Of a DNA stretch of 64,000 bases, positions 36,583-64,000 are shown one piece after another (the stretch's first letter is position 1; every line of letters begins with the position of its first letter). The notes under the pieces were generated by a model. That model saw only the letters and a list, made by a program, of their open reading frames with translations. It was not told where the DNA came from and ran no database searches. Position numbers and translations under genes: made by a program. Source of the stretch: Candidatus Latescibacterota bacterium (GTDB taxonomy: Bacteria > Latescibacterota > UBA2968 > UBA8231). The DNA is taken from assembly GCA_965243025.1 (NCBI GenBank), contig CBDETY010000003.1, positions 3,008,001-3,072,000 on the forward strand. Reading direction: 5' to 3'.

Positions 36583-36649
36583 GCCAGGGGCCTCCCCTCC
36601 GTCGGGACGATTCGTTTCATCCCGTTGTTTTCCAGAAGGTTAGGTGACA

Positions 36650-36665
36650 TAGCACGCATCTTGCT
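36650..36665 (+). promoter_or_regulatory. Sigma54 -24/-12-like promoter with one -24 mismatch
   Basis: TAGCACGCATCTTGCT versus consensus TGGCACGNNNNTTGCW. Confidence 0.55.
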
Positions 36666-36798
36666 TCGGCGGAATCAAGGACTGCGTCAAGATACAGGTG
36701 AAAATATCATGCCTGCGAATATCCGGATCTTCCCCAAGAGCAGGGTCGAGCCTGCCGAATCCGACCCCGGCAGCACCCGCCATGGGGGCGGCCTCGGC

Positions 36799-38061: not shown

Positions 38062-38087
38062 GCGCGCACGGAAGGAGAAGAGGAAAG

Positions 38088-38813: not shown

Positions 38814-38845
38814 AGGGGACCGGGGGAACTGCAAGGAACGGGACC

Positions 38846-41224: not shown

Positions 41225-41315
41225 GAGAAGGGATCGAACGAGAACTTCGTCAGGGAGCGCTGGAGCCGGGAGAGGCGGGGTCCCAGGAGGCCCGGGAAAC
41301 TAAAAGGAGCAAACC

Positions 41316-43727: not shown

Positions 43728-43869
43728 TGATCCTTACCGTGAGCTGGTTCTGGAAGAAGCGAGAAGGCGGCGAAAGCCTCGTTGGCGAAGCGGTCCACCG
43801 GGGCGATACGGGGGACCCTGACCCCCGCAAGGACCCTGCACACGCAGTAACCACCGAAAGGAAACCGCC

Positions 43870-44544
43870 GTGATCGAGATGCGCGACATCGAGAAATACC
43901 ACCGGTCCGGCTCCTTCAAGACCTACGTGCTGCGACACGTGAACCTCGAGGTCGAGGCGGGGGAGTTCCTGTCGATCATGGGGCCGAGCGGCGCCGGCAA
44001 GTCGACGCTGCTGCACATCATGGGCATGCTCGACGAGCCGACTGCCGGCGAGTACCGGTTTCTCGGCAAGCAGGTGAGCGGACTGAGCGAGAAAGAGCGC
44101 ACCGAGGTGCACCGGCGGCACATCGGCTTCGTCTTCCAGGCCTACCACCTGATCGACGAGCAGACGGTGTACGAAAACCTGGAGATGCCCCTGCTCTACC
44201 AGCAGGTGAAGAGGTCCGAGCGCAGGGCGCGCGTGAGCGAGTTGCTCGACCGCTTCCAGATGGTCGTCAAGAAAGACCTGTTCCCGCACCAGCTCTCCGG
44301 CGGCGAGCAGCAGCGCGTCGGCGTCGCCCGCGCCCTGATCGGACGACCGGCGCTGATCCTCGCCGACGAGCCCACGGGCAACCTCAACTCCATGCAGGGG
44401 GAAGAGGTGATGGCCATGCTGCGGGAGCTGAACGACGAGGGCACGACGATCGTTCAGGTGACGCACTCGGAGAAGAACGCCGGCTACGGCAGCCGGGTGG
44501 CGCATCTGTTGGACGGCAGGATAGAGCTCGAGGGAAAGTGCTGA
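43870..44544 (+). CDS. ABC ATP-binding protein
   Basis: [25 protein letters not shown]. Confidence 0.95.
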
Positions 44545-44546
44545 CC

Positions 44547-46958
44547 ATGCTGCGCAACTACCTCCTGATTACCCTGCGCAACCTCCGCCGGCAGAAACTG
44601 TATGCAACGGTCAATACAGCGGGCCTGGCAATCGGCATGGCGGGTTTCGCGCTCATCCTGTTCTTCGTCCGCCACGAATTCGGCTACGACCGGTTTCACC
44701 ACGGAGCGGAGCGCATTTTCCGCGTCGTCGTGGAGATGCGCTCGGAAAGTTTTGACGGAAAGGCACCGATCGCCCCAGCCGCCCTGGCGGCCGCCCTTCG
44801 CGAGCAGGTCCCCGAGGTTGAAGCGGTCAGCCGGGTGTGGCAACCCTTGTTCGTGGGGGGAGTCAAGCCGGTAGTGCGGGTCGGCAACGACGTCTATTTC
44901 GATGATCGATTCTTCTGGGCGGACCCGGAGCTATTCGACGTGTTGAGTTTCGAGTTCGTGCACGGCGACCCCAGGACGGCGCTTGCCGACCCCAAGGCGG
45001 TCGTGCTCTCGGAGAGCACTGCAGAGCGGTATTTCGGCGACCTGGACCCCATAGGCCGGCCGCTCAACGAGGGAGAGCATGTGGTTCGCGCCGTCGTGCG
45101 CGATTTCCCGACCAATTCCCACCTCAGGTTCGACCTGCTGGCCGCCGCTTCAGGGACTGGTGTGGACCAGTTCCCTCTGGAAAAGAGATGGTACGACCAC
45201 AGCTATCCGACCTACTTGCGTGTCAGAATGGGAGCTGACGGGGAACGGATTGTCGAGCAGATGAACGCCATCGTTCAAGGACAGATGGGTGAGCTTTACA
45301 GGCAGATGAACCATGACGTCAGCTACGGATTGCAGCCCATCGTCGACGTGCACCTGCATTCCGATTTTTACGCCAACATCGGCAGCACGAGCGGCGACAT
45401 AGCCCATATCTACGCTTACAGCGCGGTTGCCGTGTTCCTGTTGCTTCTGGCGATCATCAATTTCACCAATCTCGCGACAGCACAATCCTCGGAGCGCGTG
45501 CTGGAGGTTGGCGTGCGCAAAGCGGTGGGAGCATACCGCGGCCAGCTCGTCCGTCAGTTCATCGGGGAAGCGATCATTCTGAGCTTCGCTTCGCTGGGTG
45601 TTGCGCTGTTCATCATGAAGATGGTGACGCCGTGGTTCAACGAGCTGACGGGAATGAAACTTGCGCTGAACCTGCCGGAGAACCCGCAGATTCTGTTGGC
45701 GATGTCCGGAATGGCGCTCGTTACGGGGCTCTGCGCCGGCTTCTACCCCGCCCTGCAGATGTCCGCCTTCACCCCGGTCCGGGCACTCAAGCGGATGATC
45801 GACCGGTCCGGCCGGTCGGTCGGACTGCGAAGCATCCTCGTAGTGACTCAGTTCACCGTTTCCATCGGCTTGCTGGCGGCGACCCTCATCGTCGGCGAGC
45901 AGCTCGCCTTCCTGCGCTCGAAATCCCTCGGTTTCGACAAGGACCACCTGATCGTCTTCACCACCCGTTCAGATGCAATCCGGCGGCAGTTCGAGCCTGT
46001 GCGCCAGGACCTCCTGGCGAGCCCACTCGTCACGGCCGTCGGACGCTGTTCGCAGGAACCGGGCTACGTGATCAACAAGTCCGACCTCAAAACGACGGGG
46101 CCGGATTCGGAGACGTTGCAGGTCACGATGCTCTGGGTGGACTACGACTTCGTCGATGCCATGGGCATGCGGGTGCTCGAAGGCCGTTCCTTCTCCAGAG
46201 ATCACGCCGACGACCCGAAGCACGCTTTACTGGCCAACGAATCGATGGCCCGTCTTCTCGGCCCTGAGTCCGCAGTCGGGGCCCGACTGGAAAGTCAAGG
46301 TGATGCAGGTGCGGCGACGGTCGTCGGGGTCGTAGCCGACTTCCACTTCGGTTCCCTGCACCAACCGATCGAGCCCCTGGTGATCGCCATGCCGGAAAAC
46401 GCAGTGAACGGCAGCTTCAGCCCTGCCTATGCGGTATTGCGCCTGGCCCCGGGAAACCCGCGACAGGGGATTGAGTTCATCCGTAAGACCCTGCGATCGC
46501 ACAACGATCCCTTCCCCTTCGACTACCACTTCGTCGACGAGCGGCTCGACGCCCTGTATGACTCGGAGGAACGCCTGGGCCGCATCTTCGCCGTTTTCTC
46601 CGGACTCGCCGTGTTCCTCGCCTGCCTGGGCCTCTTCGGTCTGACGGCTTTCACGGTGCAGAAGCGCACCAGGGAGATAGGCATCCGCAAGGTGTTGGGT
46701 GCGACCAGCCTGTCCGTGGTCGTTCTGCTTTCGAGAGATTTCACCCGCCTGATCCTGCTGGCCAACCTGATTGCATGGCCCATCGTCTTCTTTGCCGCCG
46801 ACCGCTGGCTGCAGGGTTTTGCCTATCGCATCGATCCGGGATTGGGGTTGTTCGTTGCAGGTGGTCTCGTGGCGCTTGCGACCGCCTGGCTCACCGCCTC
46901 GTATCACACGCTCAGAGCAGCGCAAGCCAATCCGGTGAATGCCCTTCGTTCCGAGTAA
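44547..46958 (+). CDS. MacB/FtsX-type ABC permease
   Basis: [37 protein letters not shown]. Confidence 0.93.
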
Positions 46959-46981
46959 TTCTTCAGGCAAAGGAGATAGCC

Positions 46982-49354
46982 ATGCTCATCAACTACCTGA
47001 ACATCGCCGTCCGCCACCTGAACCGGCACCGGCTCTACGCTCTGACCAACATCTGCGGTCTGGCCGTTGGAGTCGCCGGCTGCCTGCTGATGGCGGCCTG
47101 GGTCCTCGGCCAACTCCGGACCGACCGGTTTCACGAGCACGGAGACCGCATTTACCGCATCTACACCCAAGGGGAAGGAACCGTCCGCCTTTCCGTTCCC
47201 GCCGCCCTGGGGGCCAGCCTCAAGGGCCAAGCTGACGTCGAAGGCGTGGTGCGCATGCTGAAAGTGGACAACCCGGTTCCGCTCGTCAGCCACGGAGACC
47301 GGCGTTTCTACGAGAGAGCCTTCTGGTTCGCCGACCCGGAAGTTCTGACGGTCTTCACTTTTCCCCTTGTGGCGGGCGACGCCGCCACCGCCCTCGGGGA
47401 ACCCTTCACCGTCCTCCTGACCGAGTCCGCGGCCCGCAGGCTGTTCGGCGACGCCGACCCCATGGGGCGGGTCATCCGCTTCAGGGACCACCTCGACCTG
47501 AGAGTGACCGGGATTCTGCGCGACCTGCCCGAACAATCACACCTGCGGTTCGAGTTCCTTGCCTCCTTCGCCACGGTAGAGCGCTGGCTGGGGTCAGCGG
47601 CCGTGAACGATTGGCGCCGCAACATGAACGCCACCTACATCCTTCTGCGTCCCGGCGTGGAAAAGGAGACCTTGAGCCCCATTTTCGACGGGCTCCGGGA
47701 AAAGCACCTCGGGTCCGAGGACAGCCGCCACTGGGAGCTGCAGCCCCTCCACCGGATACACCTCCATTCGCGGGGGGACCTGGGCATCACGGGAGGAGGA
47801 GACGTCCGCGAGGTGATCATCCTGGGGACGGTCGCCCTGCTGGTACTCCTCGTATCCTGCCTCAACTATGCCAACTTGGGAACCGCCCTAGCCTTGCGGC
47901 GGGTGCGCGAGATCGGACTGAGGCTGTCGATGGGGGCCGGCCGAAGCCAGCTCGCACGGCAGTTCCTGATCGAGTCGGCCCTTGTGACCGCATTGGCCTT
48001 CGCCGGCGCCCTGGCCCTGGCGGACACCCTGGCTCCACACTTGGCGCGACTGGGAGGGATGGAGATCGGCTTGGCCTGGTCCGATCCGATGATTCCGGTC
48101 CTGATGGCGTCGGTATTTCTGCTGGTCGTGGTCCTGTCGGGAGGCTACCCCGCCTTCCGCCTTTCCCGGATCGCACCGGTGCGGGCCCTGGAAGGCAGTG
48201 TTGCCGGCGGTGGCCGGAACGCCCGCCGAGCCATGGTGACGGCGCAGTTCATCGTCTCCGTGGGGTTGCTCTCCGCCACCGCGATTGCCTGGCAGCAGCT
48301 CAATTTCATCAAGAACACCGAACTCGGAATCGAGACCGAGCAGCTCCTTGTGGTGCCGATCCGCAACCCGCAGATGCGGAGCGACCAGCAGGCGGTCAAG
48401 GCGCGGTTGGGCGAGTTGCCGGAAATCACCTCGGTGAGCGCGGCAGCTCTGTTGCCGGCAGGGCCCCTGGGAAGGAGCACCCTCCTGCCGACTCGCCCCG
48501 GAGCGGATCCCGTGAGCGCCGACCTGCTGTGGGTCGACCCCGGGGTTGCGGAAACCCTCGGAATGAACCTTGTAGCGGGAGAGGGATTCACCGAGAGCAT
48601 GGAGCCGCGCAACGGTTATTTCATCCTCTCCATGGCCGCGGTGCGGGCCCTGGGGTGGGAGTCCGCTGATTCGGCGATTGGCCGAACCTTGGAGCTCGAA
48701 CAGGCCGGGGGAACGGGCGTTTCACCCAGGGGCACCATCACCGGAGTGATCGAGGATTTTCACTCCGGGACACTGCGGCGCGGTATCCAACCGGTCGTCA
48801 TGCAGTTGTGGCCATGGCACAACTACCTGCTCGTTCGCTTCCGCCTCCATTCCCTGCAGCAGGTGGTGCACCAGGTAAAGGCCTTGATGGCCGAACTCGA
48901 TCCCGTCCATCCCTTCGAGTACTCCCTCCTCGACGACCGCTTCGCCGCTTTGTACCGGAAGGATGAAAGATTGGGGTCGCTGTTCGCGGGCTTCGGCGGT
49001 CTGTCCCTTCTCATCGCCTGGGTAGGGATGTTCGGTCTCGCTTCCCTCGCCGCGGAGCGTCGGCGCATGGAGTTCGGGGTGCGCAGGGTACTGGGCGCTA
49101 CCGGTGCGGAGATCGGCCGGCTCCTCGCCGGAGACCTTACCCGCCTTGTGCTAGCGGCAGGGTTCCTCGCCTGCCCGATCGCCTACTTTGGCATGGGTGC
49201 GTGGATGGAGCAGTTCAGCGAGCGCGCCGAAGTCGGTGCCGGTCCGTTCCTCGCGGCAGTTGCGGCCGCGTTGGTCGCCGCTTGGGTAAGCGTCGGTTAC
49301 CATGCCGTCAGGACGAGCCGGATCGATCCAGTAGAAGCTCTGCGCTGTGAGTAA
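46982..49354 (+). CDS. MacB/FtsX-type ABC permease
   Basis: AAGGAG RBS then MLINYL; EIGLR..MGA; ALRCE. Confidence 0.92.
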   Translation: MLINYLNIAVRHLNRHRLYALTNICGLAVGVAGCLLMAAWVLGQLRTDRFHEHGDRIYRIYTQGEGTVRLSVPAALGASLKGQADVEGVVRMLKVDNPVPLVSHGDRRFYERAFWFADPEVLTVFTFPLVAGDAATALGEPFTVLLTESAARRLFGDADPMGRVIRFRDHLDLRVTGILRDLPEQSHLRFEFLASFATVERWLGSAAVNDWRRNMNATYILLRPGVEKETLSPIFDGLREKHLGSEDSRHWELQPLHRIHLHSRGDLGITGGGDVREVIILGTVALLVLLVSCLNYANLGTALALRRVREIGLRLSMGAGRSQLARQFLIESALVTALAFAGALALADTLAPHLARLGGMEIGLAWSDPMIPVLMASVFLLVVVLSGGYPAFRLSRIAPVRALEGSVAGGGRNARRAMVTAQFIVSVGLLSATAIAWQQLNFIKNTELGIETEQLLVVPIRNPQMRSDQQAVKARLGELPEITSVSAAALLPAGPLGRSTLLPTRPGADPVSADLLWVDPGVAETLGMNLVAGEGFTESMEPRNGYFILSMAAVRALGWESADSAIGRTLELEQAGGTGVSPRGTITGVIEDFHSGTLRRGIQPVVMQLWPWHNYLLVRFRLHSLQQVVHQVKALMAELDPVHPFEYSLLDDRFAALYRKDERLGSLFAGFGGLSLLIAWVGMFGLASLAAERRRMEFGVRRVLGATGAEIGRLLAGDLTRLVLAAGFLACPIAYFGMGAWMEQFSERAEVGAGPFLAAVAAALVAAWVSVGYHAVRTSRIDPVEALRCE

Positions 49355-49391
49355 CCAGACTCAATCACACCATAGACGTAGGAGATTGAAG

Positions 49392-50040
49392 ATGCTGCGA
49401 ATTAATCTGCTCGTTGCCCTCCGCACCCTGCTGCGGCACAAGAGAAAGTATCATCAACCTGTTCCGGGCTGAGCATCGGAGTCGCCTGCTGCACGCTGGT
49501 CTACCTGTACGTCGATCACGAGTTGCGCCACGACGCCGTTCAACGAGAAGGGTGAACGGATCTACAGGCTTCTGCTCGAAGACGGAGCGAAGGGATAACC
49601 GAAAAAATTATCTTTAAATGGAACAAGGTTTGTCGGCGGGGCACCGACGAAAAAACAGCCCACCCGGAAGAAACTTGGTGATGGAATCCCAAGGGGGATC
49701 ATTCCTTCCTCTGTCCCGGTGGCCTTCCGACCCCGGGTGCCAGTTTGTCCTGCTTCTGGTGTCATCCGCAAGGTCCTCGGGCAACCACCGGCAGCGTGTT
49801 GATGATGATGTTGCGCAAGTTCGGATGGCTCGTGGTGCCCCCGCCAACGCCATCGCTTGGCCCGTCGCATTCTTCGTCCTCACCGCTGGCTCGCCTTCTA
49901 CGCCTACCGCATCGATCAAAGCCCGGAATGGTTCGCGCCGGCCGGCGTCGGGGTCCTCGCAGTCGCCCTGGCCGCTGTCACCGGGCAGACCTGGCTGGCG
50001 GCGCGGACCAACCCGGCAGACGCTCTCAGGTACGAGTGGT
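49392..50040 (+). pseudogene. Permease remnants (5' fragment ~49392-49580; 3' fragment ~49763-50037)
   Basis: MLRINLLVALRTLLRHK start; the 3' piece matches the ends of the 38846/41316 genes with indels. Confidence 0.8.
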
Positions 50041-51200: not shown

Positions 51201-52368
51201 GTGTTGTGTCGCAGAGATTCGCTCACAAAGTCTCTTGATTTTCGCGAGGATGGAATCGGCCGTAGCCGTCCAGACGAAAGGGCGTGCGTTGGCGTTCCAT
51301 TTGGCGGTGTAGCGTTCGATCCGCTCGATGAGCTCTGATACCTTACGGAACGAGTCCCGGCGAAGAGCTTGGCGGGTAATGACGCTGAACCAGATCTCGA
51401 CTTGGTTGAGCCACGAAGCATACGTGGGGGTGTAGTGAACGTGAAATCGAGGACGCCGTGCCAGCCATCGCTTGACCTTGGCATGCTTATGCGTGGCTTA
51501 GTTGTCGACGACCAGATGAATATCGAGGTCAGCCGGGACGTTGGCTTCAATGTGGCGCAGGAACTGGAGGAACTCCTGGTGACGATGACGAGACTTGCAC
51601 TGGGTCATCACGGCGCCGGTGGCGATGTCCAGTGCGGCGAACAGGGTGGTGGTGCCATGCCGCTTGTAGTCGTGCGTTACCCCTTCCACGTATCCCAGTC
51701 CCAGGGGCAGCATGGGCTGACTTCGTTCCAACGCCTGGATCTGGCTCTTCTCGTCCACGCGCAGCACCATGGCGTGCTCGGGGGGATTCAGGTATAAGCC
51801 GACGATATCCCGTACTTTGTCGACAAAGAAAGGATCGGTGGAAAGCTTGAAGTGCTTGTGTCGGTGGGGCTGCAAACCATACGTGCGCCAAATGCGATGA
51901 ACGCCATCCTTGGTCAGGCCGGTTTCCTCGCCCATGGAGCGCAGCGACCACTGGGTTTGGTCTTTGGGCTGGGTCTTCAGGGTCTTGTATACCACCTCGG
52001 CTACCTGCTCGTCCGTGATCGATCGCGGCGCCCCTGAGCGCAGCTCATCATACAAGCCTTGGAGCCCGTTTTCGAGAAAGCGCCGGCGCCACTTGCCGAC
52101 CGTAGCACGCGTCACACCCACCGCGGCCGCGACGGCTTCATTGGGCCAGCCTTCGGCGGCCAGCAGTATAATCTCGGCTCGCCGCACCAACCCGTGGGGA
52201 AGGCTCCGTGATTTGGCCATCGATTCCAATCGTTCCCGGTCCGACGGACTCAGCTCTAACGGCGTTAATGGACGCCCCGTCACCATAGGTCTCTCCTTTC
52301 AGAAAAGGGGATAAGAGAAACCTACGGCACCTTCAATTGTTTGTACAGTTATTTAGACGACAGGGCAC
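51201..52368 (-). mobile_element. IS630-family element; transposase inactivated by an in-frame TAA (51498-51500)
   Basis: CTAG at both ends (TA duplication); IRs GTGTTGTGTCG/GTGCCCTGTCG; VDN*ATHK..ASWLNQVE continues in frame. Confidence 0.92.
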
Positions 52369-52419: not shown

Positions 52420-52500
52420 CGGTGACATCGCAGCCCCGCGGGCGCCTTGGCCTTTGGCAACTAGCGGGACGGGTTCGCACACTGAGTAAAAACGTTATAA
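52420..52500 (+). repeat. attC-like site, branched family
   Basis: gggcgccttggcctttggcaac..gggttcgc..AAACGTTATAA matches the reverse complement of 61535-61624. Confidence 0.7.
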
Positions 52501-53292: not shown

Positions 53293-53383
53293 CTATAACA
53301 GGACGAGTCGCGCCGTTGCGTCGATTGGCGCCTCGGCCCTCAGGATACTGCCGTGCAGGTCCACAACCCCTGAAACCTTAAGT
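53293..53383 (+). repeat. attC-like site (degenerate; R' reads CTT)
   Basis: CTATAAC...ggcgcctcggccctcagg...GAAACCTTAAGT. Confidence 0.5.
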
Positions 53384-53443: not shown

Positions 53444-53539
53444 TCATAGCGGGCAGCGTTTAGCGTTCGCGCGCCTTTTTGGCAGCTTTGTTTTTGGGCA
53501 ACCCGGAACGCGGGTTCGACAATCCGGGAATCGCTAGAC
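53444..53539 (+). repeat. attC-like site (degenerate)
   Basis: Family core ggcaacccg..cgggttcg; ends TCATAGC / GCTAGAC. Confidence 0.5.
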
Positions 53540-54644: not shown

Positions 54645-54775
54645 CCAAGGTCTCGCACGTGACCATCGCCAAGGTCCTGGACCGGCATATGGTCACCTAC
54701 CAGCGGACCCGCACCTCGAAGTAGTCGAAGGATCTGGATTTCTCTTCAAAAAAAACGCATCAACCGCCTCTACCG
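54645..54775 (+). mobile_element. Internal fragment of the IS630 at 57870-59025, inverted
   Basis: ~130 bp similar to the reverse complement of ~58427-58558. Confidence 0.8.
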
Positions 54776-54928
54776 GGGGGCGTGCCCGATGCAGATTGCT
54801 TGACTGGTCAGCAGGAATCCTGTGATATTGCCAGCCACCCGACATTCCCGATTTTCCAGCCCTTCGCGAAACAGCGCTATCGTTTCATATGCCTTGTTTT
54901 GAACATTTCACATGCTCGAAGGTCCTTC

Positions 54929-55022
54929 ACGTAACGTCTCACCGATTGCCGAACTCGCCGAAGACGATCCCAAAGGCCAAAGGTCGGCGCCGCCAGCCGT
55001 AGCGGAAAACGAGTTGTAATGG
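54929..55022 (-). repeat. attC-like site, branched family
   Basis: taacgtctcaccgatt.ccgaactcgccgaag shared with 63311-63406; ~12 bp after the stop at 55034. Confidence 0.75.
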
Positions 55023-55033
55023 GACGTGCAGAT

Positions 55034-55732
55034 TCATTGTCGTCCCGTGGACGTCCCAATAAGAAAATCCGAGGCGGCAAGCCACTGCTCTGCGACTGTA
55101 CGAAGGTCGCCTCCTGGTATCGCGACCCTCGCTGGAATCTCCTGGAGCACCGCGCGCAGCTCTCCACCCCGCTGACGAAGCAAACTCATATCGGTTTGCC
55201 CCCGTAGCACAGATTTTACTTCCGAGTACGCAAAGTGCATCGCCGTGCCTATGCGGTGTTCTAAGGACCAGTCCATTTCATTCTCTCGACGAAGCCGAGA
55301 AACCAGTAGTCTTTCTGGAGGATACTCCCCAACCGACAGGTATCCTGGTTTGCATTCTGCCAGCGTGCCAAATCTGGCAACGTCCTCACCACGCTCGAAC
55401 GGGCAAAGATCCATGAGGTTCAGATCCACTTTGTGAAACACTGACTCGTTACGAAGAACCGTTCCAAGCATGCATGCCGACGTCGCGGTGGACATGAGCA
55501 TCCCGTGGTAGCGAAAAGGACGATAAGAGTTCAACGCACCCACCACATTCCAGCAGCAGCCAGGAAATCCAGAGACTACGAGAAGAAGGTCGATGTCCGA
55601 CCAACGATCCTCTTCGCCCCTAGCCTCCGAACCGAACGTGTAGCAACGCTCAACGACTGGAAGGGTCCCAAGGAAATCACACAGGTCCTTCGCCAGTGTC
55701 CGCCTTGCAGCCATTCCAGGTTGAGTCAACAT
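55034..55732 (-). CDS. Pol-beta-fold nucleotidyltransferase, ANT(6)/Lnu-like (cassette)
   Basis: FGSEARG..DRWSDIDL..KVDL. Confidence 0.8.
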   Translation of the reverse strand: MLTQPGMAARRTLAKDLCDFLGTLPVVERCYTFGSEARGEEDRWSDIDLLLVVSGFPGCCWNVVGALNSYRPFRYHGMLMSTATSACMLGTVLRNESVFHKVDLNLMDLCPFERGEDVARFGTLAECKPGYLSVGEYPPERLLVSRLRRENEMDWSLEHRIGTAMHFAYSEVKSVLRGQTDMSLLRQRGGELRAVLQEIPARVAIPGGDLRTVAEQWLAASDFLIGTSTGRQ

Positions 55733-55777
55733 CCCGTTCCTTTGGGGGAATCTTGATCTTACACCCTACCTACATTG

Positions 55778-55861
55778 CTCAAACGTTTCGCCGTGCCCGA
55801 ACCGCGAATGCGGTTGCCCGAAGGCGCGCCTGCGCCAAAGCCGGGCACGGACGTGTTAGGC
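55778..55861 (-). repeat. attC-like site, branched family
   Basis: GCCTAAC-ACGT-CCGTGCCCG...CGGGCACGG-CGAAAC-GTTTGAG; 6 bp after the stop. Confidence 0.85.
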
Positions 55862-55867
55862 GAAGAC

Positions 55868-56668
55868 TTACACTTCAGCCAGAATTACCATTCCCACAGG
55901 AAGTCGAGGCACGTCACCCTCACTGTCGACATTATCCCAACCAGCCAATTCTTCAAGTCGGCGAATGACAAATCCCGCATCAGCGATGGCGTTAACGACC
56001 TCCGCGAGGGGATGAAAGAATTCGACAATTTCTCGCTCCCCTTTCCAGCCACCGTGTTTGTCAGCGAGTGGAGTGCCGTCGAAACGGTAATACCCAGGTG
56101 ACGTGTTGAAGTAATCTCGTTCGACCGAAAAGACGCCATCCCTCTCCGACAAGCATTCCAAGACTGGATTGCCGTGGGTTAATACCAATCGTCCCGTTGG
56201 CTTGAGGACCCTGTGCCAATTGCGACAACACAAGAATAGATCCTCGAACCAGCAGATGTACGTTGCAACGACGATATCCAGGCTACCGTCAGGTATCGGC
56301 AACAAAGTCTGAGCATCGGCTTCGACAAATGTGACATTCGATCCGATCTTGGCCGCATTTTCCTTTGCAATGCGGATCGCTACTGGGCTGATGTCGCAGG
56401 CCGTAACGTGGGCACCGAGATTCCCCCAGGAGAAAGCCTGTTTCGCATCTCCCGCGCAACAGGTATCTAGCAGGTGCGCCCCGGAAACGTCACCAGCCAA
56501 TTGGACTACTGCTGCGTCGAGGGTGACTGCCCCCTCAGCATAGTGCTTATGGAAGTTCGGCACCTCTTTGAGGTTGAAATCCATGTAGGCTTCTTGGTAT
56601 TCGTCCCAAGCTTCTCTCAGCATCTTGTTATGGATGGCTTGTTTATCTGGCTGGTTCATATTTGACAT
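55868..56668 (-). CDS. Class I SAM-dependent methyltransferase (cassette)
   Basis: LLDTCCAG, VTACDIS, EADAQ, RVLKPTG. Confidence 0.88.
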   Translation of the reverse strand: MSNMNQPDKQAIHNKMLREAWDEYQEAYMDFNLKEVPNFHKHYAEGAVTLDAAVVQLAGDVSGAHLLDTCCAGDAKQAFSWGNLGAHVTACDISPVAIRIAKENAAKIGSNVTFVEADAQTLLPIPDGSLDIVVATYICWFEDLFLCCRNWHRVLKPTGRLVLTHGNPVLECLSERDGVFSVERDYFNTSPGYYRFDGTPLADKHGGWKGEREIVEFFHPLAEVVNAIADAGFVIRRLEELAGWDNVDSEGDVPRLPVGMVILAEV

Positions 56669-56695
56669 TTCCCCACAACCGGAAATCGAGTTTTC

Positions 56696-56754
56696 GCCTA
56701 ACGGACAAGGGCTTGCGATGGGCGGACCCGCGTGTGCGCGGTGTATAGTTGAGA
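56696..56754 (-). repeat. attC-like site (short, eroded)
   Basis: TCTCAAC ... GTTAGGC on the minus strand. Confidence 0.6.
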
Positions 56755-56794
56755 AGGGTCCTCAAGCCCGGAGTTGGTGGCCGTGCTCCCCTCC

Positions 56795-57271
56795 CTACTC
56801 CCGCTCCACGAAATATTTCTTAAATCCGTGACTCGTCCCATCTTGCATTCCAAGGCGTTTGTAGAATCCCACCTGATCTTCGTTTGGACCGCTGAGTAAC
56901 TGTAACTTGTAGCAGCCCTTCTCTTCGGCAAGGTTAATCGCAAATGTCATCAGTTTTTTCCCAAATCCTTTGCCTCTTTGTTCGCGTGCAACAACGACGT
57001 TCTCGATGATAGCCCAAGGGCGCCCTTCGTAAGTAAAATTCGGAACGATTGCCATTATGAGAGTGGCCACTATTTCCTTATCCGACTCGCCCACAACAAT
57101 GAAAATGTTGCCGTAGTCAGACATCTCATCGAAGATCCGAATTGACTCTTCGAGTCCGAGAGTCTTGGCCGAAAGACTATGGGGGCGGCTCGTGATCTGA
57201 GGAAAGAGATTTAGCAGCGATTCGACGTCTAACCTGGTCGCAACTCGGCAAGAAATGTCTGAATGATTCAT
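56795..57271 (-). CDS. GNAT acetyltransferase (cassette)
   Basis: IENVVV...QRGKGFG, GCYK, FYKRLG. Confidence 0.92.
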   Translation of the reverse strand: MNHSDISCRVATRLDVESLLNLFPQITSRPHSLSAKTLGLEESIRIFDEMSDYGNIFIVVGESDKEIVATLIMAIVPNFTYEGRPWAIIENVVVAREQRGKGFGKKLMTFAINLAEEKGCYKLQLLSGPNEDQVGFYKRLGMQDGTSHGFKKYFVERE

Positions 57272-57300
57272 CCGGTGGCCTTTCTCGACTTCGGCATGGC

Positions 57301-57368
57301 CATTAACGTTTTACCGGTTGCGGAAGCCCAAGGTGCGCCAGCACCGCAGCGCAAACGTGTTGTTAGAC
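57301..57368 (-). repeat. attC-like site
   Basis: GTCTAAC ... AAACGTTAATG; shares gccgcagcgcaaac-type core with 57705-57796. Confidence 0.75.
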
Positions 57369-57376
57369 GCTGCTTC

Positions 57377-57694
57377 TCACAGCTCTACTTCCTCGCAAGC
57401 CCACTCCTGCTCAAATGTCATTAACTCATTCCAACGTTCAAGAATGGGTTCATATTGGCGATACCAGTCAGCGTAATCCTCCGAATTCGTCGTCTCCTCC
57501 CAAGTGTGACGACTCGACCAATACTGCAACGCGAGATAAAATCGAGTATCAGCGATGCGAAGCAGACCGAGCCGCAGACAACCTGGGAGTTTCTTGAAGT
57601 GTGGAACGATCTCCCCACTGACAAGACTTTCAAGCTCCCCTTGCTCCGCACCATCTCGCAATGACCACCGCTTAAACGTTATGAAGTTTGACAT
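57377..57694 (-). CDS. Dimeric alpha-beta barrel / ABM-like small protein (cassette)
   Basis: 105 aa; KLPGC..Y....YWSS pattern. Confidence 0.65.
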   Translation of the reverse strand: MSNFITFKRWSLRDGAEQGELESLVSGEIVPHFKKLPGCLRLGLLRIADTRFYLALQYWSSRHTWEETTNSEDYADWYRQYEPILERWNELMTFEQEWACEEVEL

Positions 57695-57704
57695 ATGAAA
57701 TTTT

Positions 57705-57796
57705 GTTTAACGTTCCGGGCGGCCTGCGAACCCGCGCAGCGGGTTGCCGGAGGCCAAGGCGCGATCAGCGCCGCAGCGCAAACCGCGGCGTTACCC
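57705..57796 (-). repeat. attC-like site, branched family
   Basis: GGGTAAC ... GGAACGTTAAAC; aacccgc/gcgggtt hairpin. Confidence 0.82.
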
Positions 57797-57869
57797 GATG
57801 TATCAAACCACTGGACGCACCTGCGCTACTTCACTCACTCTTGAGGAACGGCACGAATTGCATCATCTA

Positions 57870-59025
57870 GTGCTCTGTTAAAGAGTCGGCATTGAATTTT
57901 GGACCTTCACCAACTTGGCATCGTCCCGGTTTCGATGTCGCCATACGAGGTATTCCTGCATGCGTTGGCCGACGTCTCGATGGTCCCTTGGGTCGCTGTT
58001 CTTGATGACGAAGTAATGGGCCGCCGTCAGATGGCATTCGAGACGATTCATCCAGGAGGCGTTGGTCGCGGTGAAGACCAAAAAGACCTGATTTCGCTGA
58101 CACCATCGCCGGATCTTGTCGGTCGTGTGCGTCGACAGGTTGTCGAGGACGAGGTAGATGCGTTTGGCTTTGCGGTAGCGGCGCCGGATGGCCTTCAGGA
58201 AGGTGAGCACCACCGAGGCGTGCTTCTTCGGCTTGTGATGCATCCACAGGTGATCCTCGTGGACGTTGTAGGCGCCGAAGAAGTAGCTGACGCCGGCGTG
58301 CCGGGAGTAGGTGGCCCGGTGCCGCACCGGGTGTTTCTGCGGCGCCCACGAAGAGCCGGCATGGGGCTTGATCTGCACCGGCCCCATCTCGTCGAAGCAG
58401 ACTACGACCGCGTCCTTCGGCGGGCGCCGGTAGAGGCGGTCGATGCGTTTTTTTTCGAGGAGAAATCCGGATCCTTCGACTCCTTCCAGGTGCGGGTCCG
58501 CTGGTAGGTGATCTTATGCCGGTCCAGGACCTTGGCGATGGTCACGTGCGAGACCTTGGGGATCATCTGGCGCCCCACCAGACAGTCGGTCAGCTTGCGC
58601 AGCGACCAGTGATTGAAGGGTTCGCCGAAAGCTCGAGGGGGCATCTTGGCGATCTCCACCACCACGGACTCGTCTTCGGGCGTCAGCGTCGGGGGGCGCC
58701 CCGGATGGGCTCGGGTGCGCAGCGAGGCCAGCCCTTCCTCGTTGTATTGCCGCAGCAGTTGGCGCACGTATTCTTCGTGCAGATGCAGGGTCGACGACAG
58801 TTCCTGGACCCGCATACCCTGGGCACTGAGGGAGATCAACTGCCCTCGGCGCATCTGCACGGCATGGCGCGGCCGCTTCAGCCATCGGCTCAGTTCCCTG
58901 GATTCGGCCGCATTCGGTGTTCGAGCATGGAGACACATGGCAGGACCTCCCCGTAAGAATCGACGTATGTCCCCATGATACCAAGGCTTACGAGAAAGTA
59001 CAAGCCCCAATCCTTAACGGAGCAC
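57870..59025 (-). mobile_element. IS630-family element (orfs 58402-59010 and 57878-58387, joined by a probable frameshift at A8, 58448-55)
   Basis: IRs GTGCTCTGTTAAAGA/GTGCTCCGTTAAGGA, CTAG at both ends; LDNLSTH, ASWMNRLE. Confidence 0.93.
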
Positions 59026-59115
59026 TAGCTGGCGCGACAATGGCGATAAATCGACACCAGACTTCGGATCAATCACTGCAATCGTGTAATCAACTGTGGT
59101 ATCAGGGTAAACCTG

Positions 59116-60375
59116 TGGAGTTGACCCGATTTCGTGGACACTTCATTTCTTGAAAGAAAGGAGGGTGTCCAACCATGCCGAAATCCCATTCCCCTTATCC
59201 GCCCGAATTCCGGCAACAGATGGTGGAACTGGTACGGGCGGGTCGTAGTCCGGAGTCGCTGGCCAAGGAATTCGAGCCGTCCGGGCAGACGATCCGCAAC
59301 TGGGTGATCCAGGCCGAACGCGATGAGGGGGTGCGCCGCGACGGCCCCTCCCGTCCGGAGCAGGAGGAATTGCGGCGCCTTCGCCGTGAGAACAAGCAAC
59401 TGCGTATCGAACGGGAGATCCTGGCAAAAGCCACGGCCTGGTTCGCTCGCGAGGCCGACTCGGAGTCCGGCCCGTCTACGAGTTCATGAGAGCGCACCAG
59501 GCCGACTTTCCGGTGCTGACGATGTGCCGCGTGCTGAAGGTCTCCCCCAGCGGCTACTACGCCTGGTTGAAACGCCCGCCTTCGGGTCGCGCCCGGGCCG
59601 ATGCCGTGCTCAAGGCACGTGTCGAGCAGATCCACCAACACTCCCGGGGCACTTATGGAGCGCCGAGGATCCGGGCCGAACTGGCCGAGGAGGGCCAAGC
59701 CATCGGTCGCAAGCGCATCGCCCGATTGATGCTTGAGCTCGGGGTGCGCGGGGTATGCGCCCGCCGCCGCCTCTCCACCACCCGTCGCGGCCGGCAGGGC
59801 CGGGTCGCCTCCGACCTGGTCAAGCGGGTGTTTTCGGTCTCCGGCCCGAATCGCCTGTGGGTTGCCGATCTCACCTACATTCCCACGAGGTCGGGGTTTT
59901 TGTATCTGAGCGTGGTCATGGACGCCTGGAGCCGCCGAGTGGTGGGCTGGGCCATGGCGAACCATATGCGTACGCAGTTGGTGCTGGACGCCCTTGACAT
60001 GGCCCTGCACCGGCGCCGTCCCAAGAAAGTGATTCACCACTCCGACCACGGCAGTCAGTATACGGCCCTGGCCTTCGGGAAGCGCTGTCGCCAGGCCGGG
60101 GTACGTCCGTCGATGGGATCGGTCGGTGACTGCTTCGACAATGCTCTGTGCGAAAGCTTTTTCGCCACCTTGGAAAGGGAGCTGCTGGATCGTCATCGGT
60201 TTGCTACCCAGTCGCAAGCCCAGCGTACGGTTTTCGAATACCTGGAAGGCTGGTACAACCCCCATCGGCGGCACTCGGCCCTGGGACAACGATCTCCCAT
60301 CAACTACGAGAGGTATCATTTATCAAGGGGTATAAATCCAAACGGAAAACTGTCCGTGAAATCGGGGTAACCTCA
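59116..60375 (+). mobile_element. Complete IS3-family element (orfA 59175-59489, orfB 59486-60370)
   Basis: 4-bp TSD CCTG; ORF translations identical to 26197-27456. Confidence 0.95.
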
Positions 60376-60631
60376 CCTGAACAATCTTGTAGTCGATGGA
60401 AGGGTTCGGCTCCACAACGCGGACTGAATACTTAGCACCCAACTCAGGAACATGCACGTGGCGCAATTGTTTCAAAGCGTCTTCGACCCTTCGAACCGAA
60501 GACGAGTCACCTTGAACGACCAGCGTTAGTGGCTCTTCGGCGGGTTCGTCGCAGCTAGCCTCCAGGAGTGCCCCTACTCCTGAACAGATAATCCAGAGTC
60601 GTCGTCGCATCATGTTCTGATCTCGCATTTC

Positions 60632-60720
60632 GGGTAACGTCCGACAATTCCCGACAGCCCGAAGGGCTGTGCCGAAGGACGAGCGGCGAATGGCGCGCCG
60701 TGGGAATTGCTTTGATATAT
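60632..60720 (-). repeat. attC-like site with non-canonical R'' (ATATATC)
   Basis: caattccc/gggaattg stem, CAGCCC-GAA-GGGCTG hairpin, R' GTTACCC. Confidence 0.75.
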
Positions 60721-60791
60721 GACGTGTACTCTCAGAGGCAATGGGGTCCTGTTGGTGCACAATTTGTAAGATATCTTCGTTGAAACGCGAG

Positions 60792-61505
60792 CTACTCCGG
60801 CAGTCTTCCAGCTAACCATTCAATGGCGTTGAGGGTCCATGTCTCGTTTGACGCGCCCGCGAACAGATCTGTGCGGGAGTCGTCGAGGCTGGAAATGTGG
60901 CCCCCCGAGGTCATGACAACGGCCTTGCCCGCGATCGCCCCGGGCGGTTCTATTGCTGCGGCAAAATCGCCGACATTAGGGTCTTCACTACGGCCCAGGA
61001 CTGTGACGGAAGAACCCCGTCCCAAGGTCATTGAGCAGGATGTCCGGATCTGTAAGCCGTGGGGACAATTTTGCGAAATCGGATGGGAAGGGACCAGCAC
61101 TATTCGTGGCGTTCTAACCCACTCCTCATGGAATGTTACGGGCAAGTCCAACGTGCGAGCGACTTGATTCTGCGGTTCAACGAACCCCTTGTGATTGGCC
61201 ATGAGGAATAGACCACCACCGCGCGTAAAGAAATCGGTGATGGCGGCCAATTCGCCGTCCGAGAACGGAATACTTTTTCTTCTCCCCGAGATCACCAGGA
61301 CTCCGGCCTCGCGTAGGGAAGCCGCTTCGAGATCCGTAGGATCCATAGTGTAGCCACGGGCAGTGAGAGCGGAGGCAAGTCCAACCAACCGCTGTCCTCG
61401 CCAAGCGTCCCCTCGGGGCGGTTCACTATAGTTTTCAGGTTCCGTACCTTGATGTCGAATAACCTGATGACTTTTCGAATCGAAAGCCACTTTTACCATA
61501 ACCAT
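60792..61505 (-). CDS. Class I glutamine-amidotransferase-like fold (DUF4350/GldG-like) protein (cassette)
   Basis: FD..H, FSDGELAAITDFFTRGGGLFL, HPI, NAIEWL. Confidence 0.7.
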   Translation of the reverse strand: MVMVKVAFDSKSHQVIRHQGTEPENYSEPPRGDAWRGQRLVGLASALTARGYTMDPTDLEAASLREAGVLVISGRRKSIPFSDGELAAITDFFTRGGGLFLMANHKGFVEPQNQVARTLDLPVTFHEEWVRTPRIVLVPSHPISQNCPHGLQIRTSCSMTLGRGSSVTVLGRSEDPNVGDFAAAIEPPGAIAGKAVVMTSGGHISSLDDSRTDLFAGASNETWTLNAIEWLAGRLPE

Positions 61506-61534
61506 GGTACTATTCCAGTCACCTTATCCATGTC

Positions 61535-61624
61535 ATATATCGCTTTCCGGTTGCCGAACCCGCGAAGCGGGTTGCCGAAGGCCAAGGCGCCCGAGGGCGG
61601 GGCAGCGGCCACAGGTTGTTACCG
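61535..61624 (-). repeat. attC-like site with non-canonical R' (GATATAT)
   Basis: CGGTAAC...; aacccgc-GAA-gcgggtt and gcc-GAA-ggc hairpins. Confidence 0.8.
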
Positions 61625-61640
61625 GATGTGAGATCTCAAC

Positions 61641-62384
61641 CTACCCGAACCCGTTGGTCCGTATCCATTCGATTGACGACGAGATGCCCTCGTCAAGAGT
61701 TTCCAAGCACCACACAGCTTCCGGCGCATACTCCAGAAGAGCACTACACACCTCACCAATAGGGATAGTCCCTTGATCAAGAGCGAGGTGCTCGTCGGGC
61801 TCTCCGTGATTGTTGTGCATGTGAACCCACCCGATTCTGGGTCCAAGTCGTTCGACCCACGCTATCGGAGTCTCACGAGAGTTGCAATGGCAGTCCCCAA
61901 TATCGAGGCATACGTCCACTCGAGGATCATTGATTGCGTCGATCACTTCAGCTAGCAGGACGGCATCCCATCCGAGCATGTTCTCAACATGGTAGCGAAC
62001 AGAGGGTTCCTTGCACTCAAGGAAGTCATGCCAGAACGCCACACATCGAGACAACCAATTCTGCGGGGCGCTGGTGCCTGGGACGTATCCGTGGTGTAGG
62101 ATGATGTCGAAGCAATCTAGTTCACGGGCGAAGCGGCACGCCAGTTCGAATCGATGCCGGGTCACCTCCCGGATCATGGGATCATAGCTTCCAGCGCACA
62201 GATCCCCGAAAGGTCCGTGGAGTGAACGTAGCTGAAGATCATCCAGAGGTCTTTGTAATGCTGCCACCCTCTCTGGCTCGAGGAAAGACTGGATCTCGAT
62301 CCCATATCCATGTTGACGACAGACAGCGGCGTACTGGAGATCATCGACCGCAACCATAATGCGATGGGGTTTGTAACTCGTCAT
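61641..62384 (-). CDS. Sugar-phosphate isomerase/epimerase (AP endonuclease 2 fold) (cassette)
   Basis: SLHGPF, VENM, CLDIGD, HMHNN, DEHL, CLET; start at MTSYK after the attC. Confidence 0.88.
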   Translation of the reverse strand: MTSYKPHRIMVAVDDLQYAAVCRQHGYGIEIQSFLEPERVAALQRPLDDLQLRSLHGPFGDLCAGSYDPMIREVTRHRFELACRFARELDCFDIILHHGYVPGTSAPQNWLSRCVAFWHDFLECKEPSVRYHVENMLGWDAVLLAEVIDAINDPRVDVCLDIGDCHCNSRETPIAWVERLGPRIGWVHMHNNHGEPDEHLALDQGTIPIGEVCSALLEYAPEAVWCLETLDEGISSSIEWIRTNGFG

Positions 62385-62404
62385 CACTTCGCAAATCTCC
62401 TTTC

Positions 62405-62488
62405 CGGTAACGTTCTCGCCGTGCCAGAACCGCGAAGGGGTTGGGCGAAGGCACCTCAGCGCCGAAGCCGGGCACGGACGTGTTATAT
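62405..62488 (-). repeat. attC-like site, branched family
   Basis: ATATAAC-ACGT-CCGTGCC...GGCACGG-CGAGAAC-GTTACCG. Confidence 0.85.
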
Positions 62489-62514
62489 GCAGTGCCGCAA
62501 GCGCTGACAACACT

Positions 62515-63255
62515 TCACGGACCCTGTGCCTGGTAGACCCCAATTATTCGGTCAATACTCTTGGTATGAAGGCGCTCATGCCATACCAGGCGACGCAAAA
62601 CCTTCCCCACAGACCAGCCGCCGTGAGCATCTAAGAGATGAATTCGCGAAAGGTCTTGTTCTGCCTTCAACTTCTGTAATGCCTCGATTGTCACGTTTCG
62701 ATGTTTTAATAAGTTATGCTGCCACGGACCCTTACTGTCAGCGGGCGAAACGGTAGGACGGATACCAATGTTTGGCAAGTAATAGTGAGTTTCTACGTTT
62801 GCGATGTGCACAAGAATCTGTCGGATTGTTCGCCAGTTCGCCCAAGTTGAAAAACGGCGATAGGGCGGATTCCAATCTAAGGCGTTGTCCGACAACTCAG
62901 CGACCTGCCTCAGAAGGTCTGTGCGTGTGGCATGAAGTAAATCGATTGTCTCATCAATCAATGAAGGTGTTACCGGCTGGTAATCCCAGTCGAACAGTAT
63001 CTCGTTTCCGCTGACCTGTTCGGCAACCTCCACTTTGGGTAGCTCTAACCCCACTCGGCACGGCACGCCACACCTTTCGCGAAACCGAATGTACTCCAGC
63101 AGTCTGTCGGGGACCTTTGCAAGGACTTCGTTTTCGGTCTCTCTCCATGTAGCAAAGCCGAGATAAGATGGAATCCAGGCATGGTATCCCGCTTCCCCAT
63201 CTTCGTCGAAAGCTCTGTGGAGGTAAACTTTTGAACTCGCTCTCGGCTCAAGCAC
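62515..63255 (-). CDS. HicB-like N-terminal domain + DinB-family protein (cassette)
   Basis: AW.P...G..T..ET; TIRQILVHIANVE.HY; WSVGKVLRRLVWHERLH. Confidence 0.8.
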   Translation of the reverse strand: MLEPRASSKVYLHRAFDEDGEAGYHAWIPSYLGFATWRETENEVLAKVPDRLLEYIRFRERCGVPCRVGLELPKVEVAEQVSGNEILFDWDYQPVTPSLIDETIDLLHATRTDLLRQVAELSDNALDWNPPYRRFSTWANWRTIRQILVHIANVETHYYLPNIGIRPTVSPADSKGPWQHNLLKHRNVTIEALQKLKAEQDLSRIHLLDAHGGWSVGKVLRRLVWHERLHTKSIDRIIGVYQAQGP

Positions 63256-63310
63256 TCTGATCCTGGACCTTTCTGTGCCTCATTGCATGTCCTCTCTCAG
63301 TCCGCATTGC

Positions 63311-63406
63311 ATATAACGTCTCACCGATTACCGAACTCGCCGAAGGCGAGTTGCCGACAGGCCAAGGTTGGAGAAGCCAGCCGCAGCGGTAAACGAGTGG
63401 TTAGTG
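63311..63406 (-). repeat. attC-like site, branched family
   Basis: CACTAAC...GAGACGTTATAT; CTCGCC-GAA-GGCGAG hairpin. Confidence 0.85.
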
Positions 63407-63469
63407 GATGTGCGATTCTCTCCAAGAACAGCCGGTATGAGGAGAAAAACTCTCAGTCTCTCAGGACAC

Positions 63470-63910
63470 TCAGACAGACGAACGAACAGGTCTTGATGCC
63501 CAGCCTAGGGTTCCAACGCCACCGATGGTTGCCGCGGTTCCAACCACCATCCCCACGATGGTCCCTCCGCCGCATTCCTCGACGCCCAACTCCATTAGTC
63601 TCCAATACTGGTAGAGAGTCCCGACGAAGACCGGAAGCATCCCGATTGCGATTGCTGTCAACCGCTGCCCCACACTGAACTCCTTCAGAAAGCGCCTACC
63701 CAAATTGTACCATACAAAAAGCGTCCCGGCACCGAAGATCGCGAAGACAGCTAGCATTACCAGTCCGAATGGAACTCCCTCGACCGGATTGTTGAGAAGG
63801 GCGTAAAAGACGCCTATGAACAGCGCCATCATGCTGACCGCAGTGGCCAGGAGCGCGACCCCAGCCCCCCCGGGACTACCAAGCAGATCAAGAAAGCGTC
63901 GAATACTCAT
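63470..63910 (-). CDS. Hypothetical membrane protein, ~4 TM (cassette)
   Basis: Four hydrophobic segments; GAGGTG RBS; lies between attC sites. Confidence 0.75.
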   Translation of the reverse strand: MSIRRFLDLLGSPGGAGVALLATAVSMMALFIGVFYALLNNPVEGVPFGLVMLAVFAIFGAGTLFVWYNLGRRFLKEFSVGQRLTAIAIGMLPVFVGTLYQYWRLMELGVEECGGGTIVGMVVGTAATIGGVGTLGWASRPVRSSV

Positions 63911-63957
63911 TCCGCATCCACCTCAAGGCTCAAGGTTCCCTAATTCTATCGCATTTC

Positions 63958-64000
63958 CACTAACGTTTTGACAGGACTCCGAACCGGCGTCAGCCGGTTG
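63958..64000 (-). repeat. attC-like site (partial, runs off the window)
   Basis: cactaacgttttg...ccgaaccggc..gccggttg. Confidence 0.7.

Follow-up and report, generated by a model that had tools for sequence, protein, structure and literature searches.

Long cognate arms with a fixed wobble at the attC sites of a Latescibacterota gene-cassette array, and a candidate short recombinase related to integron integrases

We analysed a 64,000-nucleotide stretch of Candidatus Latescibacterota bacterium DNA (the window; contig CBDETY010000003.1, here C3, of assembly GCA_965243025.1, positions 3,008,001 to 3,072,000), in which the region from 54929 to 64000 holds the distal end of a gene-cassette array of the integron type on the minus strand. 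The array is composed of head-to-tail units of one gene each with intervening hairpin sites (attC) of 68-96 nt, which start with a box ending in AAC (R'') and end with GTT (R'). It extends past the window end to C3:3072729, and there is a further lone site at 3086704-3086791, which is separated from the last regular site by ~14 kb (L004:730-14700 = C3:3072730-3086700; L and G numbers denote individual loci and genomes) and has CTT as its R'. A profile built from the window attC sites (nhmmer) gave 39 matches at E <= 1 in the genome, which also has a second array at C3:4100868-4119347 and a small third array at 5716348-5716789. The cassette genes of the window code for two GNAT acetyltransferases, a DinB-like protein, a TIM-barrel enzyme, a methyltransferase, a nucleotidyltransferase and an ABM-domain protein, as judged by Pfam, along with two proteins that have no family above the Pfam cut-off, a gene set that is typical of chromosomal integrons. 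Of the two tyrosine recombinase families that were searched, neither has a member near this array, the only three matches in the genome being located at 4.12, 5.01 and 6.50 Mb, more than 1 Mb away.

The start of a cassette in this array is complementary to the flank of its own downstream R''. For this comparison the G of GTT is position 1 on the array's top (coding) strand, which is the minus strand of the window, and the cassette start is set against the reverse complement of the bases ending at its own R'' (24 bases each). By the standard definition, given in PMC2674596, a cassette begins with the first T of R' and ends with the next G, and its attC is the site as it exists in the circular form. 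Since this definition is standard the 7-bp part of the pairing is already known, and pairing of a start with its own R'' over the R box is the long-known, ordinary footprint of cassette insertion. What is seen here goes further. A sequence-only reading of this stretch had listed six start/R'' pairs of 9-17 bp, all of which we find where it had placed them, with several running longer than it had stated. The pair at 62411/61618 matches at 14 of 17 positions (runs of 9 and 5 matches on either side of a mismatch of 3 nt), and cassette c0, which starts just past the window at L004:647, matches its own R'' flank at 17 of 18. When c0 is included, and the R'' of cassette c7 is set at 56773, cognate arms of 12-18 positions are present in 8 of the 10 cassettes. 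Cassette c7 (gene at 56795) had been described as failing to match, but with this R'' it agrees at 11 of 14 positions and all three of its differences are A against G. The cassette with the gene at 55034 (c9) does lack a match, as had been reported, and the cassette with the gene at 57377 (c6), which that reading had left unlisted, matches only across the R box (6 of 7). The decay that had been proposed for the distal end applies to c6 and c9, and not to c7.

Permutation of the starts among the 10 cassettes of the window array indicates that this pairing is specific. Specifically, cognate matches summed over positions 4-20 amount to 95 relative to a permuted mean of 56.4, with none of 200,000 permutations as high, and for positions 14-20 alone only 20 of 200,000 permutations were as high, a result that is conservative because one R'' was set two bases off in that run. 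The two ends of one physical site do not match in this manner, again as had been claimed, with R'' and R' agreeing at a mean of 5.67 of 17 positions as compared with 5.21 for random pairs and 9.5 for cognate ones. Each cassette was also closed into a circle at G|TT in silico, and its bottom strand was folded under DNA parameters with each of 10 start donors. The cognate start gave the lowest energy of the 10 donors in 7 of 10 cassettes (ranks 1, 1, 1, 2, 1, 1, 8, 1, 1 and 6) with a mean gain of 5.8 kcal/mol over non-cognate starts. Permuted pairings are therefore not equally long, the cognate excess stands, and the pairing does reach past the 7-bp R box, both in these permutations and in the larger set of cassettes described below.

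This larger set contains 80 cassettes, 19 from this genome and 61 from 17 loci of relatives, for which sites were located in 18 further 20-kb stretches of 17 relatives and all neighbouring located site pairs 150-3000 nt apart were used with nothing dropped. Cognate matches exceed permuted ones with z values of 14.9 at positions 4-7, 7.1 at positions 8-10 and 12.3 at positions 12-17, values that overstate independence because some of the 80 cassettes are mutual homologues, and from position 18 onward there is only background (positions 18-24, z 1.5). A bottom-strand stem of at least 13 is formed by 41 of the 80 cognate pairs versus 8.7% of permuted pairs. The matches could in principle arise from a shared site consensus, or by chance, and positions 1-4, 8 and 12 are indeed conserved with non-cognate pairs matching at 86-99% at positions 1-4 and 8. 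However, at positions 5-7 and 13-17, which vary, only cognate pairs match (70-75% versus 28-30% at positions 5-7) and none of 20,000 permutations reached the observed value, so that this explanation is rejected by the test and retains next to no credibility. The consensus of the arm is CAC-N-TC + RYYYAAC ... GTTRRRY + GA-N-ATG, which gives an R arm of about 13-17 bp, with pairing that reaches to about position 15-17.

Within this arm there is one position that is conserved as a non-identity. Position 11 is A in 73 of the 80 starts and G in 64 of the 80 reverse-complemented R'' flanks, with A and G occurring together in 59 cassettes and the two sides being identical in only 10%. In the folded bottom strand this combination makes a G.T wobble, whereas the top strand is left with an A.C mismatch. 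A further mismatch, which is optional, occurs at position 10, where 19 of 80 cassettes have A against T. A general bias toward bottom-strand wobbles was considered and rejected, as transitions outside position 11 comprise 28 of the bottom type versus 32 of the top type. An ATG at positions 11-13 acting as the start codon of a leader peptide was likewise set aside (A11 in 73 of 80, T12 in 54, G13 in 44); frames opened at positions 11-13 in the window are mostly 2-19 codons long when assessed by eye. The R box is described as 7 nt in PMC5027507, where three unpaired features are named as the sole ones that distinguish the strands. We found no description of a fixed wobble in open-access papers and preprints, and the term 'wobble' is absent from PMC11641012.

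The strand on which position 11 mispairs also bears on whether the complementary ends might act in RNA as a 5'-3' panhandle, a terminator or a stabiliser that is unrelated to DNA recombination. In keeping with this idea, the arms lie on either side of the coding region in the transcribed strand, and transcription crosses a cassette array from one side. However, it is the transcribed top strand that has the A.C mismatch at position 11 while the wobble is on the bottom strand, for all 10 circularised cassettes the bottom strand has the lower folding energy of the two strands (by 0.3-6.6 kcal/mol), and the arms abut the AAC/GTT crossover triplets exactly, which is also where homology between genomes breaks. 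We thus regard a role in RNA as very improbable.

The sites themselves form imperfect hairpins of the attC kind, with inner L boxes. Alignment of 64 sites, with the structure written by hand, was used to derive a covariance model for long-armed sites. Of the 64 aligned sites, 56-63 have the AAC/GTT pairs, and covariation is evident from 85.8% of cells being paired versus 70.4% after shuffling, with 20 of 26 pairs changed on both sides. In minimum-energy folds of 96 sites the L''-R'' arm mostly has 1-2 nt unpaired and the R'-L' arm 4-5 nt, bases that are only possible counterparts of the canonical extrahelical G and T. Two other approaches were discarded: RNAalifold run on a MAFFT alignment of 17 mixed attCs predicted zero pairs, and a generic AAC...GTT constrained-fold scan used as a detector returned 14-30 matches per strand in any 13-20 kb.

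A DNA search over 132 genomes of the class located the same genes with the same boundaries next to different neighbours, which supports units that are bounded at G|TT. Cassette c3 has three homologues (L041, L042 and L043) at 84-87% identity in other genera and in another family, each of which starts exactly at GTT past an unrelated upstream site and keeps its own attC, with unrelated cassettes beyond the next G. Homologues of c7 at 92-95% identity are found in another family of the class, where both ends are kept in L046 and L048; of these two only L046 keeps the GTT start, and this start alone is common to three further homologues (L049, L050 and L051). The GTT starts of c7 homologues, seen in 2 to 4 other genomes, likewise come after upstream sites that are unrelated. 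The unit of mobility therefore begins with the first T of one R' and ends with the G of the following R', with a start that is cognate with its own R''. The model of excised, shuffled circles that the sequence-only reading had put forward is thus supported as regards units that are circles opened at G|TT and inserted independently, but not as regards shuffling as such. A homologue of the c2 gene in L045 (G073:C1:3509488-3510277) is similar up to an R''-like box, which reads CAC and not AAC, and a few bases more, with no attC after it and no GTT start; this is either a decayed cassette or a non-cassette relative.

These boundaries also bear on a reading of the units as small transposon-like elements with terminal inverted repeats, for which one could cite the 12-18-bp inverted repeats near both unit ends. 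The right repeat is not terminal, however, as it is followed by ~75 nt of conserved hairpin, which move with the unit in homologues, and only at the G of the next GTT does the unit stop. In addition, a target-site duplication was not seen, and the units lie head to tail in arrays beside a recombinase and a putative attI site. We consider such elements to be an even poorer explanation than one based on RNA.

With regard to the enzyme, no integron integrase above the NCBIfam cut-off (TIGR02249, 265 bits) was found in this genome. Beside the second array there is a 193-residue frame (C3:4120324-4120905) that matches tyrosine recombinase at both ends and is missing ~105 central codons. The orthologue in G056 is intact, with 322 residues and with catalytic motifs that are present by eye in alignments. 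Among NCBIfam models it scores highest with integron integrase (240.9 bits, cut-off 265), over two stretches between which model positions 179-237 are passed over; the archaeal XerA model gives 215 bits, XerC 184 bits and XerD 178 bits. It is 35% identical to a classical IntI of the same class with gaps that fall at the IntI insertion, and its best solved relative is VchIntIA (2a3v), of which chain residues 176-237 are opposite only 20 query residues. The array-linked recombinase is thus devoid of the IntI-specific insertion near patch III that is present in a classical adjacent integrase. A tree of 34 sequences, in which a single Xer outgroup is on a long branch, unites the nine classical IntI proteins in one clade (100/99) and places the short recombinases around it without resolution. 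The recombinase family is extensive, as 7894 of the 8000 proteins scored match at E <= 1e-20, under the various names XerD, tyrosine recombinase or 'integron integrase'.

The close form of the short recombinase (group A; 65-80% identity, ~300-320 residues) was found at eight loci, and in all eight it is flanked on one side by a divergently oriented array of long-armed attCs. At seven of these loci 0.7-1.4 kb separate the recombinase from the first site detected, and at the other one 5.2 kb. Between the gene and the array there is a ~330-bp block that is conserved in all eight loci and ends exactly at CAG|TTA (six loci) or CAG|ATA (two loci), after which come eight different first cassettes. 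The sequence of this block has the look of an attI site, as its end coincides with the G|TT crossover point at the first cassette at 8 of 8 loci (in this genome at L006:2192, outside the window).

The other way of reading these loci is that the arrays are remnants of ordinary classical integrons, the classical IntI having since been lost, with the short recombinase being a passenger element that inserts at attI or attC. There are several observations that weigh toward this reading, and thus against a short recombinase that runs its own arrays. The covariance model of the long-armed site has matches in 86 of the 132 genomes of the class and the short recombinase is found in only 25 of the 132 at E <= 1e-40, a loose co-occurrence that leaves most array-bearing genomes with neither enzyme. 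In one genome (G023) a classical IntI accompanies at least 28 long-armed sites, and the short recombinase is absent at this cut-off. The short family is also multi-copy in places, with six copies in G061 and seven matches in G062, and in G062 two identical copies are directly after classical intI-type matches, one of them complete and one partial; the short recombinase of G062 may be a mobile element that targets integrons. (At G062:C1:2493564-2495712 and 2158606-2160397 the short-type recombinase directly downstream of classical intI has 314 residues, and there are at least three identical copies.) Other points tell against the short recombinase as the arrays' own enzyme or qualify the evidence for the long-armed design. 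In G056 an extra attC is located on the far side of the recombinase gene. The contrast with classical arrays is drawn from one control array of seven cassettes, one of which pairs well beyond the R box. The site detector was trained on this genome's own sites, and the mutual homology among the 80 cassettes mentioned above applies here as well. Finally, since there is no wobble excess outside position 11, a strand-marking role depends on that one position.

Against the passenger, sites within 10 kb are one-sided and divergent at seven of the eight group-A loci, and the attI-like block ends at the crossover point at all eight. On the non-array side none of 12 open reading frames (ORFs) is a transposase, and two PhyH genes there are common to this genome and to G002 of the same genus. 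Five of seven group-A genomes have a single match of this type at E <= 1e-40, with G020 and G012 having two each (the second being a truncated copy or distant paralogue). Group A thus does not behave as a mobile element that targets attC. Classical intI flanks that we examined also bear another type of attC. Specifically, a classical IntI is found in 12 of the 132 genomes, 8 of which are without long-armed attC, and the covariance model located no long-armed attC in five 13-20-kb flanks of classical intI genes. In the classical array of L031, one of these five flanks, the attCs are ~120 nt, the seven cassettes match across the R box (4, 3, 4, 4, 4, 4 and 2 of 4), A/G is found at position 11 in none of the seven, and the extension is weak (mean 3.6 of 9 versus 2.2 for non-cognate pairs). 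Overall we consider a classical remnant with a passenger recombinase to be unlikely, although it is clearly the most serious of the competing explanations.

The association is also observed outside the class. In a cross-phylum scan, with one genome taken per species and the 80 best loci retained, the covariance model matched 11 of these 80 loci at E <= 1. A Desulfitobacterium sp. chromosome (L108) codes for a 52%-identical recombinase followed by 11 co-oriented attCs, and 10 of 10 cassettes at this locus have arms that match to position 14-19 as well as A/G at position 11. Two assemblies assigned to Nitrospirae and Clostridia (L109 and L106) each have one cassette with a long arm and with A/G at position 11, and a 2.3-kb interval in L107 is without these features.

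The explanation that we favour, and consider probable, has the following parts. Each cassette would have entered as a circle that was opened between the G and the TT of its own attC, and because of this opening the start bases after G|TT and the R'' flank would belong to one site, pairing only in the excised, folded form. The cognate enzyme is most likely not a classical IntI, and would be an IntI-related tyrosine recombinase of ~300-320 residues that is without the IntI-specific insertion and that acts with an attI ending at G|TT. This recombinase would cut and join the long-armed sites, the long arm may constitute its full binding arm, and the wobble at position 11 might mark the bottom strand, or the arm, for the enzyme. 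The long arm with its fixed wobble, together with the link to an insertion-less relative of the integrase, appears to be new and well supported by the comparative sequence evidence. What the sequences show directly is that the ends pair cognately, where cassettes begin and end, that the recombinase lies beside such arrays and that it has no IntI-type insertion. In this genome the recombinase gene is internally deleted and excised circles are for that reason not expected, and the window array is probably frozen because it is interrupted by two insertion sequence (IS) elements. The coordinates of cassettes, sites and elements are provided in Table 1.

Table 1. Cassettes, attC sites and insertion sequences of the array within the window (start and R'' arms with matching positions are listed where present).
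Feature	Position	Strand	Evidence and remarks
attC0, 3' part (site of c0, whose start is past the window)	63958..64000	-	R' G at 63964; R'' C at window-equivalent 64040 (L004:40)
Cassette c1, 146-residue ORF 63470-63910, no Pfam family	63317..63963	-	start arm 63948-63964, R'' arm 63400-63416, 15/17
attC1 (R'' to R')	63311..63406	-	nhmmer E 3e-13
Cassette c2, DinB_2 ORF 62515-63255	62411..63316	-	arms 63304-63317 / 62482-62495, 13/14, sole mismatch at position 11
attC2	62405..62488	-	profile match and boundaries
Cassette c3, xylose-isomerase-like TIM-barrel ORF 61641-62393	61541..62410	-	arms 62395-62411 / 61618-61634, 14/17
attC3, R' is GAT in place of GTT	61535..61624	-	boundaries
Cassette c4, 237-residue ORF 60792-61505	60638..61540	-	arms 61527-61541 / 60714-60728, 13/15
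attC4, R'' ending ATC	60632..60720	-	profile match and boundaries
Cassette c5, one small signal-peptide-like gene split by two insertion sequences	57711..60637	-	arms 60627-60638 / 57790-57801, 10/12
IS3-family element (HTH_Tnp_1 and rve ORFs) within c5	59114..60380	+	identical copy at C3:6585826-6587092
IS630-like element (HTH and DDE_3, frame broken) within c5	57866..59029	-	domain matches
attC5	57705..57796	-	profile match and boundaries
Cassette c6, ABM-domain ORF 57377-57694	57307..57710	-	R box match only, 6/7, no extension
attC6, shortened to 68 nt	57301..57368	-	boundaries
Cassette c7, GNAT ORF 56795-57271	56702..57306	-	arms 57294-57307 / 56773-56786, 11/14
attC7, degenerate, missed by nhmmer	56696..56779	-	sequence reading
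Cassette c8, methyltransferase ORF 55868-56668	55784..56701	-	arms 56689-56702 / 55855-55868, 13/14, sole mismatch at position 11
attC8	55778..55861	-	profile match and boundaries
Cassette c9, nucleotidyltransferase ORF 55034-55732	54935..55783	-	start and R'' without match
attC9, final site of the array	54929..55019	-	profile match and boundaries

Several details of the arrays deserve description. The gene of c5 has an uninterrupted homologue in L070. A variant crossover triplet recurs, in which starts read G|AT and the R'' ends in ATC, as observed in the window at 61535-61541 and 60714-60720 and elsewhere at L004:723-729, at L006:1341-1347 and 2186-2192, and at C3:4118005. The R' of attC3 reads GAT because the next cassette, c4, supplied the AT. 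Both ends carry the variant in c4 and in the cassette that opens the second array, and the position-2 pair is therefore kept; another cassette carries G|AT at its start only, and the first cassette of L086, from a genome of the same genus, also starts with G|AT. In the second array (L005, C3:4103855-4109405) a match of ~20 nt links the start at 4109405 to the R'' flank at 4103855 with several sites in between, and there are two homologous cassettes with starts near 4115761 and 4107380. This array has undergone rearrangement or duplication.

Beyond the distal end of the window array there are three attC-like matches on the plus strand (52436-52499, 53294-53381 and 53465-53536) with dehydrogenase-like and methyltransferase ORFs between them on the same strand, which has the appearance of a short piece of array that runs toward the main one and is perhaps inverted. 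Just beyond the last attC, a 132-nt fragment at 54645-54776 (+) is 94% identical to part of the IS630-like element, and an additional IS630-like ORF is present at 51498-52286 (-); these may mark an IS-mediated rearrangement at the array end. Elsewhere in the window there is an isolated attC-like match at 21002-21073 (-; E 2.4e-5) that is remote from any array, and the segment from 34001 to 50000 is a block with a G+C content of 0.62-0.70 versus 0.51-0.60 in its surroundings.

When compared with known systems, these arrays are close to sedentary chromosomal integrons such as the Vibrio cholerae array with VchIntIA. Features in common are co-oriented one-gene cassettes, imperfect AAC/GTT hairpin sites that are similar within a genome, crossover at G|TT that leaves hybrid sites, and a recombinase gene divergent from attI. 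In contrast to these integrons, the recombinase here is without the ~35-residue IntI-specific insertion, the R arm is 13-17 bp with a fixed G.T/A.C as opposed to a 7-bp R box (PMC5027507), and the central unpaired region of the predicted folds is asymmetric, with 4-5 nt on the R'-L' arm versus 1-2 on the other. The likeness to Xer recombinases (XerC, XerD and XerA) lies in a similar protein length and in the lack of an IntI insertion, and public databases name many of the relatives XerD. In Xer and Cre systems each monomer usually has an arm of 11-13 bp. However, unlike Xer the protein here scores higher with the integron-integrase model than with XerC and XerD (241 versus 184 and 178 bits), and unlike Xer/dif it is found beside cassette arrays with sites that are folded hairpins with AAC/GTT. 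The published 'inverted integrase' group is generally made up of classical IntI proteins that have the insertion. The inverted-integrase integrons mentioned in PMC4889954 are comparable to the loci of the more distant short members (52-62% identity; L088-L093 and L108), where the recombinase is upstream of such arrays and co-oriented with the cassettes.

A cluster of attC sites lacking an integron integrase is termed a CALIN (Cury et al. 2016, PMC4889954), and the window array is classed as one because there is no integrase nearby and it has at least 11 sites, from 54929 to C3:3072729, when two attCs suffice. It differs from a plain CALIN in that a broken candidate platform of non-classical type is present elsewhere in the same genome, and because of this platform the CALIN label may hide a separate system.

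Whether these features together amount to a second, widespread kind of integron, with an integrase that is without the domain held to be essential for folded attC, a full arm of 13-17 bp and one wobble that marks the strand or arm, is a broader proposal that we put forward tentatively and would rate at somewhat below even chances. If true, the integrase of this second kind either never had, or has lost, that domain, and standard integron finders would file such arrays as integrase-less clusters. This would account in part for such clusters being unexpectedly abundant, and would bear on the origin of integrons from Xer-like systems. Integrons are in practice defined by one protein domain and a 7-bp box. 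If an insertion-less recombinase does run its own arrays, then the known range of integrons is too narrow, the rule that an extra domain is needed for folded sites would require revision, and a system not yet recognised may lie behind many clusters without an integrase. The fixed wobble would provide a simple handle on how a recombinase chooses one strand of the hairpin.

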